Of a stretch of 8,876 bases of DNA, positions 3,105 through 8,876 are shown piece after piece. The translations under genes and the position numbers were made by a program. Under the pieces are notes generated by a model that saw only the letters and a list, made by a program, of their open reading frames with translations, had not been told where the DNA came from and did no database searches. Position 1 is the stretch's first letter. Each line of letters opens with the position of its first letter. This DNA is from a virus (taxonomy: Duplodnaviria; Heunggongvirae; Uroviricota; Caudoviricetes): IMG/VR virus record IMGVR_UViG_2703718798_000006, one strand, 5' to 3'.

Positions 3105-3449
3105 ATGAAGAAACCGGGAAATTTTTCACAGCAGAATTTTCGAACAAGTGCCGAACGCCACGTTGCACGCCAGCACTTCCGCAAAAATAGTGCGACCACA
3201 ACCACTGAAATCCATGCCACACCAGACGGTCACCCGGTAAAACAAACCGGCAAGCACACCTGGGCGATTGGCGACACTGGCATCGTTATTCACAAAAGTT
3301 TTCGCAGCCCTGTTACTGGCCGATTTAATTTCACCCTGACTCGCGGGGATGATTACTTCGGACAGGACTTCACATTTTTTGAAGCCTTAAGAACGGCAGA
3401 CAGATTAATCAGCGGCCTGCGTTTTCAATATCCGGGAAGCAAGCACTGA
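3105..3449 (+). CDS. Hypothetical protein, 114 aa (ORF opens at ATG 3048)
   Basis: ATG 3105 preceded by AGGGA with 5-nt spacing; ATG 3048 has no SD. Globular-looking composition. Confidence 0.6.
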   Translation: MKKPGNFSQQNFRTSAERHVARQHFRKNSATTTTEIHATPDGHPVKQTGKHTWAIGDTGIVIHKSFRSPVTGRFNFTLTRGDDYFGQDFTFFEALRTADRLISGLRFQYPGSKH

Positions 3450-3467
3450 TAAATAAAGGATTCAGCC

Positions 3468-3710
3468 ATGATCGAAGCCTACAAAATACTTATCAATAAC
3501 GCGTTGCAACGTTATCACTTTGAACTCGCAAACCGGGGCGTAACTAAGGATGAAAGCCTTCGTAACTCACTGCGCGGCGCAATTATGGGGCTATACAACT
3601 GCGCACTGGGCAGCGATGACCGTGAAGCGCTGGAAGAATTAAAGTCGATTATGACAGAACTGTTTGAAGGTGAAATTGTCGAGCCTTACTTCACAGGGGT
3701 AGCCGCATGA
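3468..3710 (+). CDS. Hypothetical protein, 80 aa
   Basis: ATG 3468 preceded by AAGGA (3456-3460) at 7-nt spacing; stop overlaps the next start (ATGA at 3707-3710). Confidence 0.65.
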   Translation: MIEAYKILINNALQRYHFELANRGVTKDESLRNSLRGAIMGLYNCALGSDDREALEELKSIMTELFEGEIVEPYFTGVAA

Positions 3711-4966: not shown

Positions 4967-5090
4967 CACGCATAAAGCCCCACAACTACCTGGTGATAAG
5001 AATCGGTTTTCGCTGGCGATTACTCAGCAAGAACAACGGGAAGTCATGGGATTTATTAACGCATGAAACCTATAACAAAGAGGCCGCGTT

Positions 5091-6071
5091 ATGAGCAAAG
5101 AACTGTTATCCGGCACACCGCTGAAATGGGTGGGTGGCAAAAGCCGCATCATGAACACACTGAAGGTGCATCTGCCAGAAGCTGACTGCCTGGTTGAACC
5201 GTTCGTGGGTGGCGCATCGGTATTCATGAACACCAGTTACAAACGCTACATCCTGGGTGATTCCAATGGTGCGCTGATTAATTTCTGGCGGGCAGCACGG
5301 GACAACACAGACAGTCTGATCGACGAGGCGAAAACCCTGTTCCTGAACCACAACAACAGGGGTGACTATCTCATCATTCGCGAAACCTTTAACGCAGAGA
5401 ATCATGCCTTCCTGAGTAGCAGAACGGGAATAAGCGACCGCCGTGAACTGCGACTGGCCGCCATGTTTTTGTACCTCAACCGGCACTGTTTTAATGGCCT
5501 GTACCGGGTGAACGGAAAAGGCGATTTTAACGTGCCTTTCGGCTGCTACCGCAAGCCCTATTTCCCTGAGCATGAAATCCGCGCATTTGCAGACAAGGCA
5601 AACAGCACCCGAACGCTGCTTATCCACGCAGATTTTAAGGATACGCTGAACTCTGCCAGTCACCTGTTCGGCATGGGCAACACGCTTTGCGTGTACTGCG
5701 ATCCCCCTTACCTGCAATTCAGTGGCCGGGACAATTTCACCGCCTACGGAAAACCATTCGATGAACACGAGCACGTTCGCCTGAGGGCAGCACTTGACCG
5801 CCTTTCGCAGGAAACGGGCGGCATGACCAGCATCACCATCTCCAATTCCGACACACCGGAAACCAGACGCATTTATCAGGGTTACCGGATGAACTGCATA
5901 CAGGCACCACGCAGCGTTGGCGCAAGAACCCGCGAACCAGCACCGGAAGTTATCGCCACCCTGAGACAGTGCGACGCCTGCGGTCACTATGGCGGTGGCT
6001 ACTGCCCGGACTGCGGACCGGTAACGGGAGATGCAACTTACTGCGTGATGTTTACCCCTGCCAGTACGTGA
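5091..6071 (+). CDS. dam: Dam-family N6-adenine DNA methyltransferase with C-terminal Cys4 extension, 326 aa
   Basis: SD AGAGG at 7-nt spacing. N-terminal LKWVGGK and AdoMet motif FVGGASVF (res 38-45), catalytic DPPY (res 204-207). C-terminal CDACGHYGGGYCPDCG (CxxC-x7-CxxC, nt 5970..6014) not present in canonical Dam as I recall it. GATC specificity not verifiable here. Confidence 0.9.
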   Translation: MSKELLSGTPLKWVGGKSRIMNTLKVHLPEADCLVEPFVGGASVFMNTSYKRYILGDSNGALINFWRAARDNTDSLIDEAKTLFLNHNNRGDYLIIRETFNAENHAFLSSRTGISDRRELRLAAMFLYLNRHCFNGLYRVNGKGDFNVPFGCYRKPYFPEHEIRAFADKANSTRTLLIHADFKDTLNSASHLFGMGNTLCVYCDPPYLQFSGRDNFTAYGKPFDEHEHVRLRAALDRLSQETGGMTSITISNSDTPETRRIYQGYRMNCIQAPRSVGARTREPAPEVIATLRQCDACGHYGGGYCPDCGPVTGDATYCVMFTPAST

Positions 6072-6558: not shown

Positions 6559-6899
6559 TTTATATCGCCGGTCCCATGACCGGATACAAAGACGACAACA
6601 GACTGGAGTTTTGCCTGGCGGACCTGAAGCTTAGGTACGCCGGAAACATTGTTCTTAATCCTGCCGTACTGCCTGACGGATTAAGCCAGCAGCAGTACAT
6701 GAGCATTTGTATTCCGATGCTCATGTGTGCCGATGCCATTTACTTACTGGATGGATGGGAAGAGTCCGCTGGCGCACGGGCTGAGTACGCAATGGCACTC
6801 AAGCTGAACATGCCGGTGTCATTCCCGGAAAATCGGGCGGCCGGCGAAACTGTCGCACAGCTGCTTGGCAAATCAAAAGCCGCACAGGCGACTGAGTAA
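6549..6899 (+). CDS. Nucleoside 2-deoxyribosyltransferase-like (DUF4406-type) protein, 116 aa
   Basis: SD GGGAGG upstream. N-terminal VIYIAGPMTG and later ...DAIYLLDGWEESAGARAEYAMA... match the motif pattern I associate with the NDT-like/DUF4406 fold. Confidence 0.65.
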   Translation: MAVIYIAGPMTGYKDDNRLEFCLADLKLRYAGNIVLNPAVLPDGLSQQQYMSICIPMLMCADAIYLLDGWEESAGARAEYAMALKLNMPVSFPENRAAGETVAQLLGKSKAAQATE

Positions 6900-7337
6900 C
6901 CGACCGGAGATCGAAACATGATTGCGCGAAGAGCTGCCAACCGCCTCACAGGCTTTATTCCAGGCAAGATTAATCATGCACTCCATGATGGGACTGTCAC
7001 TTTCCTCAACAAAGGAGAGGCGCGCAATCATGCATTCCTTACTAATCACATGGCGCTGACTGATAAGGCGCTGGTAACTGACTGCCTGCCATTCAGCCTT
7101 TTCAGCCCTGCGTTCAAAACTGGCAGCCATGCACTGCCAAAGCAGAAACAGAACCACACTGAAGAGTACCAACACAACAAAATCACACAGGACAAACGCC
7201 GCAACACCAACCAGAAAGGCGCTGATTCGCAGAGCAGCAGAAACGCGTCGGTGAAACACACATGTAATACGTTCAAGCCAGTAGCTGTACCACAGGTCAA
7301 AAAGAATGTCGTAATCAGAAGGGAGCTTATCACTCAT
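6873..7337 (-). CDS. Hypothetical two-TM membrane protein, 154 aa, antisense to the early operon (alternative start ATG 7397)
   Basis: Internal ATG (7337) of minus ORF 6873..7673. Two adjacent hydrophobic helices (ISAFLVGVAAFVLC-D-FVVLVLFSVVLFLLW) flanked by basic residues. The overlapping plus ORF 6918..8030 is low-complexity and runs through two terminators. Weak SD (GGGG 10 nt upstream). Confidence 0.4.
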   Translation of the reverse strand: MSDKLPSDYDILFDLWYSYWLERITCVFHRRVSAALRISAFLVGVAAFVLCDFVVLVLFSVVLFLLWQCMAASFERRAEKAEWQAVSYQRLISQRHVISKECMIARLSFVEESDSPIMECMINLAWNKACEAVGSSSRNHVSISGRLLSRLCGF

Positions 7338-7500
7338 CAGAAACACCCCGCGTATGCAGACAATCACCAGTTGCCAGGTGATATTAATTCGCCACATTCT
7401 AACCACATCAGCACGCAACACAAAAACCGCTTGCCAGCGTTCGCCTGGTCGGGTTACAGTTTTCCCGCACCTCATAAAACGGGTGCCGGGATTGCAACCC

Positions 7501-7542
7501 CCGCTGACTACACAAGCGCACAACCGCGCCAGCGGTTTTTTT
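7501..7542 (+). terminator. Strong Rho-independent terminator T1: stem CCGCTG/CAGCGG with internal GCGC/GCGC sub-stem, then T7
   Basis: 6-bp GC-rich outer stem (7501-7506 / 7530-7535) directly followed by TTTTTTT (7536-7542); 4-bp inner stem 7516-7519 / 7526-7529. Confidence 0.6.
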
Positions 7543-7582
7543 GTGCGTACCGCATCGTCACATCTTTTTCGCGTCAGAATTA

Positions 7583-7660
7583 TGGTGGGGCGTACAGGGC
7601 CGACTTCGGTCGGGCCGGGGTCTTGTGTAGCCGGTGGTTGCAACCCTGTACGTCTCACCA
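7583..7660 (+). ncRNA. Candidate structured RNA (sRNA or cis-acting leader/antiterminator) in the 17-bp stem fold
   Basis: 7583-7599 pairs with 7644-7660 over 17 bp including two G-U wobbles (7590-7653, 7588-7655), which are valid only in plus-strand RNA. Enclosed hairpin 7600-7604/7609-7613 has loop TTCG with C-G closing pair (cUUCGg). ORF-free region. Confidence 0.45.
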
Positions 7661-7692
7661 CCCAGAATTGCAACCTCTGGATGGTGAGTTTT
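7654..7692 (+). terminator. Putative intrinsic terminator T2: 7-bp + 5-bp stem (one mismatch), 9-nt loop, T4 tail; mutually exclusive with the 17-bp stem
   Basis: CTCACCA(7654-7660)/TGGTGAG(7682-7688) and CCAGA(7662-7666)/TCTGG(7676-7680), followed by TTTT (7689-7692). The 5' arm is also the 3' arm of the long stem at 7583-7660. Confidence 0.45.
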
Positions 7693-7720
7693 CAAAACTT
7701 ACTACACAAGAGGCCACACC

Positions 7721-7948
7721 ATGGCAAACCGCAAGCAACAGCGCGCCCGCGCTGAGCGTCTTCACATCCACACCGAAATCAACCGCAGACTCCATCGGGC
7801 TGCATCTGTCTCCTTCATCATGCAGTCAAACGTATTACACCGACTTAACGACGGTATCGCTGCCGGGTATTACGCGGCAGTCTTCAGCTATCTGGCCGAA
7901 GACCTGGCAGAACTGCAGGACCTTATCAACCAGCAACACCACCACTAA
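7721..7948 (+). CDS. Hypothetical small basic/helical protein, 75 aa, ending HHH
   Basis: ATG 7721 preceded by AAGAGG (7708-7713) at 7-nt spacing; first gene after the structured leader. Confidence 0.6.
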   Translation: MANRKQQRARAERLHIHTEINRRLHRAASVSFIMQSNVLHRLNDGIAAGYYAAVFSYLAEDLAELQDLINQQHHH

Positions 7949-8016
7949 ACAACATCCTGAAGCCATCCCGCACCCGTGCGCGGGAGGCTTCCGCACGTCT
8001 GTTACCGGAGGTTCTC

Positions 8017-8427
8017 ATGAAGAGCGTTAAGGGACTTTCAGATATTCAGGATTTTTTTAACTGGATGTGGGCAGTGGATCCCCGGCTGGCTTCCCGCCTG
8101 AACGACTGGCACGACTATTACCGCCGCGCCTGTAAACAGGCCGCCAGACACGTCACCACATACGGGGATTTCTCCTTCACCGTTGACGACCGTTACCGCG
8201 TGGACGTGAAAGGTGATGGTTTTGGTTTATTTCACATCAACGGAACCGACAGCACCGCCATCAGTTGGTCGTCGTCAGAGATGACGCTTGTTCTGGAAAT
8301 GACAACGCACAGCGTGGCCGTGAAAGGCATATACACCGCAGAAGACTTTATCGGTGAATATCAGCGCCTTCTCGTGCTGTACCGCGCGGCGTTTCAGGCG
8401 GCGACTGCCGGGGAGTGCGACGCATGA
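8017..8427 (+). CDS. Hypothetical protein, 136 aa
   Basis: ATG 8017 preceded by GGAGG (8007-8011); stop overlaps the next start (ATGA 8424-8427). Confidence 0.65.
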   Translation: MKSVKGLSDIQDFFNWMWAVDPRLASRLNDWHDYYRRACKQAARHVTTYGDFSFTVDDRYRVDVKGDGFGLFHINGTDSTAISWSSSEMTLVLEMTTHSVAVKGIYTAEDFIGEYQRLLVLYRAAFQAATAGECDA

Positions 8428-8651
8428 GTGACCACAATGCACAGCTGGCGTACCCGTGGAACGCCCCGCTACCGGTTATCGATCCTGAAACGTTCGGCAG
8501 AGCGCAGCCAACCGCATTACGCCAGGCCATTCAGAGCTACATCAACGAGGATATTCGCACTGACGCCAGACTGGATGAAGAAACCGTCGCCTTCCTGACA
8601 ACCACAGACGAAGGGAAGCGAATTAATTCGCATCTTCAAACTGGTATCTGA
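8424..8651 (+). CDS. Hypothetical protein, 75 aa (ORF opens with GTG at 8415)
   Basis: ATG 8424 translationally coupled to the upstream gene; GGGGAG upstream. Confidence 0.5.
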   Translation: MSDHNAQLAYPWNAPLPVIDPETFGRAQPTALRQAIQSYINEDIRTDARLDEETVAFLTTTDEGKRINSHLQTGI

Positions 8652-8655
8652 AGCC

Positions 8656-8876
8656 ATGGCAGAGCTGCGCGCCCTGCCGCCGTTTCTTGCCGGTCCGCTC
8701 ATCCGTGACCTGGCGCGCCTGAGCCGCAAACAGGAGAGCGCACGCCGGGAAGGGCTTAAGAATAACAGCGCATATGCGGCGGATAACTTCGTTCGTCACG
8801 GGCTGCGTGCCCGCCTGAAACGTATCGCCCGTGTGAATGAACGCTTTGCCACCCCGGCCTTTAAGGCCACCGCCGC
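8656..8876 (+). CDS. 5' end of an ORF running off the window (>=73 codons); possibly the replication initiator (gpA-like) by position
   Basis: ATG 8656, 4 nt after the previous stop and in a different frame; open to the window end (MAELRALPPFLAGPLIRDLARLSRKQ...RIARVNERF...). Functional guess rests on P2 gene order and a faint recollection of P2 A; unverified. Confidence 0.4.
   Translation, partial: MAELRALPPFLAGPLIRDLARLSRKQESARREGLKNNSAYAADNFVRHGLRARLKRIARVNERFATPAFKATA

Follow-up and report, generated by a model that had tools for sequence, protein, structure and literature searches.

A predicted C4-type antisense RNA gene in a putative IsrK-C4 immunity module of a P88-like, P2-family prophage

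Introduction

What is the role of a long RNA stem-loop on the plus strand, upstream of the replication-proximal gene cluster of a prophage? This question is raised by positions 7583 to 7692 of the window, by which we mean the whole stretch of 8,876 nucleotides analysed here (Caudoviricetes; IMG/VR virus record IMGVR_UViG_2703718798_000006). This DNA comes from a prophage of the P2 family, of P88/Xuanwuvirus type, and represents its left end. It carries genes for an integrase, a C-type HTH repressor, a Cox-like protein, an exonuclease, a Dam methylase and a DUF4406 protein; the repressor gene occupies 1179-1661 on the minus strand. Among phages it comes closest to P88, P884B11 and Citrobacter Shae_phiSM, with identities of 82-88%. 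An original prediction, made from the sequence alone, read the stem-loop as a novel cis-acting element in which a 17-bp stem competes with an intrinsic terminator (T2), after the manner of attenuators or of the put RNA of phage HK022, and named a phage sRNA as the fallback. In our analysis the locus as a whole is very probably best explained by a C4 antisense RNA that lies in an IsrK-C4 module and silences a derepression gene, with the functional steps taken from homologous systems.

Results

The stem-loop matches the C4 antisense RNA family over its full length

When the whole window was scanned with Rfam, only two families were matched, C4 (RF01695) and isrK (RF01394), each above its curated GA. 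The C4 match covers 7578-7665 on the plus strand and model positions 1-87 of 87, with 78 bits against a GA of 45 and an E value of 2e-14. The long stem-loop is thus a predicted C4-type antisense RNA gene, a homologue of c4 of P1 and P7, the CI RNA of P4 and STnc1160 of Gifsy-1; of the readings originally offered, the fallback was the right one. ARAGORN found no tRNA or tmRNA in the window. The parts of the predicted gene are as follows.

7578..7665, plus strand: C4 antisense RNA gene (Rfam match, RF01695)
about 7584-7662, plus strand: predicted mature C4 RNA (alignment to annotated P1 c4, L008 3344-3420, and RNase P GGU site)
7583-7599 with 7644-7660, plus strand: basal stem of 17 bp (base-by-base check)
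7600..7613, plus strand: hairpin 1, CCGAC-UUCG-GUCGG, with the cUUCGg tetraloop (Rfam model and base-by-base check)
7614..7635, plus strand: hairpin 2, whose 12-nt loop carries the segment b' (Rfam model, covariation and target pairing)
7636-7643, plus strand: unpaired junction (C4 fold)

The structural observations from which the original prediction had started were borne out, apart from one coordinate. Inspected base by base, the pairing of 7583-7599 with 7644-7660 forms at all 17 positions, with G-U pairs at 7588:7655 and 7590:7653, and the CTTCGG at 7604-7609 is the tetraloop of C4 hairpin 1. Two near-identical 5' partners had also been described; ATGGTGAG is found at 7681 as stated, whereas ATGGTGGGG begins at 7582 and not at 7581. 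Folding of 7578-7665 gave -50.1 kcal/mol on the plus strand (z = -5.83; none of 200 shuffles folded as well) and -34.8 kcal/mol on the minus strand (z = -2.62). The far stronger fold of the plus strand fits a plus-strand structure that acts at the RNA level, as had been supposed. The minimum-energy interior computed by RNAfold departs from the Rfam consensus.

Covariation in homologous regions, proposed as a check in the original prediction, was examined in an alignment of 60 unique C4-plus-flank sequences, which were collected by a pattern scan of viral contigs, in every case by exact match to a 16-mer from the 5' end of C4. Compensatory changes were found in the C4 stems. Over the 27 pairs of the Rfam C4 structure, 99.9% of cells were paired, compared with 37-48% in slid controls; 9 pairs were changed on both sides, and 128 cells were compensatory. 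Hairpin 1 showed compensatory changes at all five of its pairs. In the basal stem, 99.8% of cells were paired, with double changes in 3 pairs and single ones, for the most part giving G-U, in 9 others, in a sample in which basal-stem diversity is under-represented because every homologue was retrieved by the exact 16-mer. The P4 sequence, reached instead through the covariance model, has a quite different basal stem in which the pairing is retained. In all the C4 family traits that can be judged from sequence, the element conforms to the family, and it is an undescribed yet ordinary member of it.

An IsrK-like leader precedes the C4 gene and a derepression gene follows it

The second Rfam match lies upstream of the first. 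It covers 7467-7542 on the plus strand over the full isrK model, with 59.6 bits against a GA of 50 and an E value of 4.3e-11. The c4-a1b1 model (RF03163) gave no match in the window at E <=1, although isrK was matched. Three features make up this upstream part.

7431..7460, plus strand: candidate promoter-like site, TTGCCA-18 nt-TACAGT, just 5' of the IsrK-like start
7467..7542, plus strand: IsrK-type leader RNA with the segments a1 and b1 and, at its 3' end, a strong intrinsic terminator; the equivalent of P4 seqA and of the P1 c4-a1b1 region
7522..7542, plus strand: intrinsic terminator of the IsrK-like RNA, AACCGCGCCAGCGGTT with a run of 7 T (terminator scan; matches the 3' hairpin of the isrK model)

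Hexamers of the -35 and -10 type were recognisable in seven phage loci (TTGCCA/TACATT, TTGATT/TACACT and TTGACT/TATATT). The tandem of isrK and C4 was present in 7/7 phage loci fetched, which were P88-like or lambdoids of the Stx/mEp460 type, and in Gifsy-1 and P4 as well.

Downstream of C4, the order is a gene for a 75-aa protein, an ORF of 136 aa and replication gene A.

7721..7948, plus strand: derepression (anti-repressor) gene, 75 aa, a P4 epsilon homologue and the putative regulated gene (Pfam, PHROG and BLASTP)
8017..8427, plus strand: ORF of 136 aa, phrog_3237, between the derepression gene and replication gene A (conserved synteny)

The 75-aa protein matched the Pfam family PF25738, "Derepression", with 29.2 bits (GA 27), fell into phrog_3688, and showed 36% identity to P4 epsilon over 50 aa by BLASTP (E 5e-9). 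In RefSeq the gene product is named "derepression protein", and the identical protein was found in 243 blocks of the assembly index. The 136-aa ORF, which is unrelated to orf151 of P4, probably shares a transcription unit with the derepression gene and replication gene A. C4 is the core of a predicted IsrK-C4 RNA immunity module (about 7431-7720) in this P88-like, P2-family prophage.

The "IsrK-C4 immunity system" had already been named by Barquist 2013 (PMC3632133), and satellite P4 has the same order of IsrK-like RNA, C4, epsilon and replication genes. The original prediction's statement that no such element is described in P2/186-type phages needs correction on both counts. In the literature searched, we found no paper that joins C4 to P2-like phages, and the RefSeq record of a close relative has no ncRNA annotated at the C4 position.

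The recognition segments of C4 co-vary with their targets

Exact complementary motifs recur in and around the C4 gene, as an a set at 7492, 7636 and 7668 and a b set at 7508, 7622 and 7702. The segments were named by position after the P1 annotation.

7492..7499, plus strand: a1, UUGCAACC, complementary to a', in hairpin 2 of the IsrK-like RNA
7508..7516, plus strand: b1, CUACACAAG, complementary to b', in the IsrK-like leader
7621-7630, plus strand: b', UCUUGUGUAG, that is (U)CUUGUGUAG, in the loop of C4 hairpin 2
7636..7645, plus strand: a', GGUUGCAACC, self-complementary in this allele, with the core GGUUGCAA at 7636-7643, in the C4 junction
7668-7675, plus strand: a2, UUGCAACC, in the 9-nt loop of the hairpin that the original prediction called T2
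7702..7713, plus strand: b2, CUACACAAGA (7702-7711), overlapping the Shine-Dalgarno sequence AAGAGG (7708-7713), 7 nt before the start codon

The energies predicted for the duplexes were -12.2 kcal/mol for a':a2, -17.5 for b':b2, -17.8 for a':a1 and -17.4 for b':b1. Across the 60 homologues the scaffold was nearly invariant, and a' occurred in 16 alleles and b' in 27; 42 distinct combinations of the two were counted on slightly longer segments. In a core 7-mer test on these homologues, a phage's own a1, a2, b1 and b2 were complementary to its C4 in 92-95% of cases when Watson-Crick or G-U pairs were allowed, and exactly so in 60-92%, whereas the sites of phages with another allele were matched exactly in 0.2-0.7% of cases. 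The core 7-mer test was used in place of the longest duplex anywhere in 125 nt, a measure that discriminated poorly between own and foreign targets.

The C4 segments and their putative targets co-vary three ways, which is direct sequence evidence of the predicted antisense pairing and of a diversified immunity specificity. An antisense logic is indicated because the variable loops of C4 covary with complementary target sites, one of which lies on the ribosome-binding site of the next gene.

The hairpin downstream of C4 presents a2 and overlaps the C4 stem

The original prediction had assigned the hairpin that follows C4 to an intrinsic terminator, T2.

7654..7692, plus strand: a2-presenting hairpin, with its 5' arm common to the C4 3' strand, a2 in the 9-nt loop and UUUU after it (covariation and homologues)

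Its 5' arm begins with CTCACCA (7654-7660), which is complementary to TGGTGAG (7682-7688), and TTTT comes next (7689-7692). The hairpin of 7654-7688 consists of 7 + 5 bp with a C7661/A7681 mismatch and has an energy of -17.7 kcal/mol when folded alone. A hairpin that presents a2 on a 5' arm shared with C4 occurs in 60/60 homologues, at -6.5 to -20 kcal/mol, and the same overlap with the C4 3' strand is found in P1, P4 and Gifsy-1. When 13 columns of the hairpin were aligned, 76.9% of cells were paired against 32-49% in slid alignments, with covariation in the outer stem. The arms change together from clade to clade, as CUCACCACC/GGUGGUGAG, as CUCGCCA/UGGCGAG, as CCUGC/GCAGG in P1 and as GCUAUCGCC/GGCGAUAGC in P4, where these arms lie within 8378-8410 and GUUAUUU comes after them. 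The two folds compete for CTCACCA, as had been noticed, and the concerted change of the arms makes this mutual exclusivity a family trait.

The claim of a terminator fared less well. The hairpin is real and is followed by TTTT, but the U-tract is not conserved: it reads UUUUC in 17/60 homologues and UUAUU, AGUUU, UAACC, AAACA or UGAAA in others, with at most 2 U in the first 6 nt in 12/60, and the tail of Gifsy-1, UAAACAAAA, lacks a U-tract. A simple terminator scan made no call at T2, where the stem is interrupted, the loop has 9 nt and just 4 U follow. The variability of the U-tract in homologues rules out a conserved intrinsic terminator, and T2 is a conserved hairpin that presents the target a2.

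The balance between the folds was estimated from computed energies. In the window, the full C4 stem with an inner 5-bp hairpin has -51.6 kcal/mol and a 10-bp C4 stem with the full hairpin has -49.1 kcal/mol. The difference between the C4 fold and the full hairpin is thus +2.5 kcal/mol here; it averages +3.45 over the 60 homologues and is about 0 in P1-type sequences. On 7578-7700 the outer pairs of T2 reach an equilibrium probability of about 0.01. When the leader 7467-7700 was folded, the minimum-energy structure (-101.0 kcal/mol) contained a cis duplex of a1b1 with a'b' and the full hairpin, with the C4 fold lost; the C4 fold was regained once 45 nt more were added. Because 7-9 nt of the hairpin also belong to the C4 3' strand, two states are open to the unprocessed leader, the C4 fold or the cis a1b1:a'b' duplex with the full hairpin.

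These results bear on the cis-acting switch proposed originally, in which the 17-bp stem is an antiterminator against T2 (7654-7688 + UUUU) and sets read-through into 7721, a role that could add to the trans action of C4. We consider this explanation unlikely, though it is the strongest of the alternatives. The folds exclude each other at a small energy difference, the hairpin is present in every homologue, its outer stem and the 3' strand of C4 covary, and T2 is complete in the leader's fold of lowest energy. Further, according to the account of P4 within PMC4825925, immunity there is exerted by premature termination, which depends on pairing of CI RNA with seqA and seqC and takes place upstream of the replication genes, so that the idea of termination at this point has a precedent in a related system. 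The variable U-tract, the silent terminator scan and the low probability of the outer T2 pairs all argue against it, and because the loop of the hairpin is a2, the conservation of the hairpin is explained by the role of a2 as target alone. Briani et al., in 2000, reportedly described two terminators in P4, t1 in the leader, which depends on CI and seqA, and t4, an atypical Rho-independent terminator just 3' of cI. The T2 of the window could, we presume, be the counterpart of t4.

Leader switching is likely to be a secondary layer of control and not the primary function of the element. A selected conformational switch built on the overlap of the C4 3' strand with the a2 hairpin is a tentative extension of the C4 reading. 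The choice between C4 maturation and the a2 hairpin might depend on a1/b1:a'/b' pairing, which could occur in cis or be relieved by RNAs in trans, and where the hairpin is followed by U residues, as here, it might serve as an RNA-dependent terminator before the anti-repressor and replication genes. Such a switch may underlie the atypical terminator t4 of P4. The overlap is conserved with covariation in P88-like, lambdoid, Gifsy-1, P1 and P4 modules, and no description of this coupling as a family-wide feature was found in the literature searched.

Protein-coding and put-type readings of the region

Long ORFs overlap the region on both strands, some phage records place CDSs across it, and an ORF that starts at the C4 AUG of Gifsy-1 was reported to be translated (PMC4825925). 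The region might on these grounds be protein-coding, through ORF 6918-8030, ORF 7354-7755 or an "orf45"-like ORF from ATG 7582, with the pairing incidental. We regard this as very improbable: the variation is compensatory in stems and is not concentrated at codon third positions, the ORF that opens at the C4 AUG is cut short by a stop in 20/60 homologues and lies variably in frame 0, 1 or 2 to the next gene, an intrinsic terminator lies inside the long ORFs, and the RefSeq record of a close relative has no plus-strand CDS here. The long ORFs at 6918-8030 (plus), 6873-7673 (minus) and 7354-7755 (plus) were rejected as genes; the minus-strand gene here extends over just 6873-7397.

A put-like RNA of the HK022 kind, which would modify RNA polymerase directly in cis to antiterminate, can practically be dismissed, as its likeness to the element is of a general kind (a structured RNA in an early phage transcript, 5' of terminator-like hairpins), while the element is a full-length C4 family match, the loops expected to contact protein are hypervariable and covary with complementary RNA sites, and the homologues in P1 and P4 are processed antisense RNAs that act in trans (PMC5320573, PMC4825925). 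The same family match and loop/target covariation dispose of the original attenuator or put-type reading as a novel cis element.

Discussion

Comparison with known systems

The predicted C4 module has its closest parallels in the immI region of P1 and P7 (c4, icd, ant), in P4 and in Gifsy-1. P1 c4 matches the same Rfam model with 68.8 bits, and the P1 region has the same order of a1, b1, c4 (with b' in a hairpin loop and a' in the junction), a2 and b2, the same C4 5' context (AAUUAU|GGUGGGGCGU) and the same a2 hairpin overlapping the c4 3' strand. In P1, b2 overlaps the Shine-Dalgarno sequence of icd, and in the window that of the derepression gene; the putative regulated product is likewise an anti-repressor. 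The two differ in that P1 is a plasmid prophage and the window comes from a P2-like integrating prophage, in that icd-ant1/2, with icd the directly repressed ORF, stands in place of a 75-aa P4-epsilon-like protein, and in the alleles of the a and b recognition sequences. The element 5' of C4 in the window, moreover, scores as isrK and not as c4-a1b1.

In P4 (seqA, CI RNA = seqB, seqC), the CI RNA matches the C4 model with 74.9 bits and the seqA region matches isrK with 60.8 bits. P4 and the window share the order of IsrK-like RNA, C4, targets, derepression protein (epsilon) and replication gene, and in both the 5' arm of the a2/seqC hairpin is common to the 3' strand of the antisense RNA. In P4 a small ORF separates epsilon from the targets, replication depends on alpha (primase) whereas the replication gene of the window is an endonuclease of the P2 A type, and the basal stem has another sequence (AUGGUAGC...). 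Premature transcription termination is documented for P4 and would apply to the window by analogy.

Gifsy-1 (IsrK, "orf45"/STnc1160, AnrP) gave 79 bits with isrK and 69 bits with C4, followed by the anti-repressor-like STM2616. It has a stable processed RNA downstream of IsrK. Two alternative structures, A and B, in which the middle region of IsrK pairs with C4 a'b' or the C4 stem forms, were shown there experimentally (PMC4825925), and the alternatives predicted for the window match this pair. Gifsy-1 is a lambdoid phage with another anti-repressor family, and those who described the locus interpret its C4 region as an ORF that is translated and coupled to anrP; this ORF is not conserved across the family.

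Attenuators and HK022 put resemble the locus in having mutually exclusive leader hairpins, one with U residues after it. Unlike attenuators, the window shows no leader peptide or ligand logic; its long stem is that of an antisense RNA family whose members are processed and act in trans, and the U-tract is not conserved. Its loops pair with RNA targets, in contrast to put, which acts on RNA polymerase.

Proposed mechanism

By analogy with P1, P4 and Gifsy-1, transcription from the promoter at about 7431-7460 would for the most part stop at the 7522-7542 terminator and yield short IsrK-like RNA. Transcripts that read through would be processed by RNase P, with cleavage between U7583 and G7584, and by trimming of the 3' end, to give a C4 RNA of about 79 nt. 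A GGU site for RNase P in C4 processing is given in the part of PMC5320573 that summarises Hartmann 1995, and the C4 gene has the same 5' context (AAUUAU|GGUG) and 3' sequence (...CACCACC) as P1. The predicted limits of the mature RNA given above follow from combining this cut site with the alignment to annotated P1 c4 (3344-3420).

The C4 RNA would then pair with a2 and b2 on the leader, so that the Shine-Dalgarno sequence is occluded and access of ribosomes to the derepression gene is blocked. In the lysogen, polarity or premature termination would keep this gene silent together with those that follow it, replication gene A among them. The copies of a1 and b1 in the IsrK-like RNA may provide a competing C4 site for autoregulation or as a decoy; in Gifsy-1, the anti-repressor is activated by IsrK supplied in trans (PMC4825925). 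The details of coupling may differ here, because the Shine-Dalgarno sequence overlapped by b2 is that of the derepression gene itself and no conserved ORF runs from the C4 AUG, in contrast to icd in P1 and the translated, coupled ORF in Gifsy-1.

Significance

As the C4 family and its logic are already established, the discovery is a modest one. The module probably governs expression of an anti-repressor, and with it induction and immunity, in widespread P2-like enterobacterial prophages. That a phage of the helper type bears the same IsrK-C4-epsilon cassette as the satellite P4 has a bearing on helper-satellite conflict and heteroimmunity. Of the original idea, what remains most interesting is that the C4 3' strand and the a2 hairpin overlap, with conservation and covariation. 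Conceivably, though we would not count on it, this overlap couples the maturation of C4, or pairing in cis, either to termination or to presentation of the target. Annotation errors also came to light, as several public records put CDSs over these RNA genes.

Allele combinations of the C4 recognition segments

The two segments through which the C4 antisense RNA recognizes its targets, a' and b', were compared among 60 unique homologues of C4 and its flanks from viral contigs. Counted over slightly longer segments, they occur in 42 distinct combinations in the 60 sequences; the homologue L078, for example, joins the a' allele of the window to the b' allele of phage P88. This variety of combinations suggests that recombination takes place between the two specificity segments, which would give the phages a modular heteroimmunity. 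In one viral contig, L045, a C4 module at 2410-2559 is followed, at a distance of about 1 kb, by another at 3415-3564; their b' loops are identical (GUCCUUUUCAG) and their a' segments differ (AGUUCCAA versus AGUGCAAA).

In the allele of the window, the a' segment GGUUGCAACC (7636-7645) is a perfect palindrome, and the same UUGCAACC is common to a', the upstream complementary copy a1 (7492-7499) and the downstream copy a2 (7668-7675). With this allele, C4 molecules could thus form dimers by self-pairing, and pairing between a1 and a2 would likewise be possible. The palindromic a' allele is also carried by L078 and by a second homologue, L047.

Gene context of the module

Two protein-coding genes lie on either side of the module:

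6873-7397, minus strand, gene for a 174-aa protein of unknown function (phrog_6315), flanked by the DUF4406 gene and the IsrK-like promoter
8424-8876, replication gene A, ATG at 8424, its start overlapping the stop of the preceding ORF

The minus-strand gene, which encodes a protein with hydrophobic stretches and is accompanied by a terminator-like hairpin at 6893-6878, looks like a moron. Since it breaks up the rightward early operon, transcription of the block from the derepression gene to gene A may depend chiefly on the IsrK promoter.

Comparison with five near-identical prophages revealed a net absence of about 65 nt at 8639/8640 of the window, where 2 nt stand in place of positions 3919-3985 of L133. 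Gene A is therefore frameshifted and its reading frame meets a stop codon at 8649-8651, which would reflect either a replication-defective prophage or an assembly error.

In Gifsy-1 (L135, 32813-33480, minus strand), the block formed by isrK, C4 and the anti-repressor gene is followed by isrJ (100 bits), a tRNA-Arg and isrI (80 bits). The window contains no counterpart of isrJ or isrI.

Annotated proteins across the RNA genes

In public records, coding sequences are drawn across the isrK and C4 RNA genes, for example:

L002/L003 (Stx2a_1447 and mEp460), 1155-2306, 383-aa 'antirepressor/Rha' proteins, start upstream of isrK
L001 (P88), 5033-5221, minus strand, hypothetical protein gp13
L136 (P4), 8168-8584, minus strand, 'cI gene product'

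In 34 of the 60 homologues, the AUG within C4 shares the reading frame of the gene that follows, which is the probable cause of over-extended N termini in such annotations.
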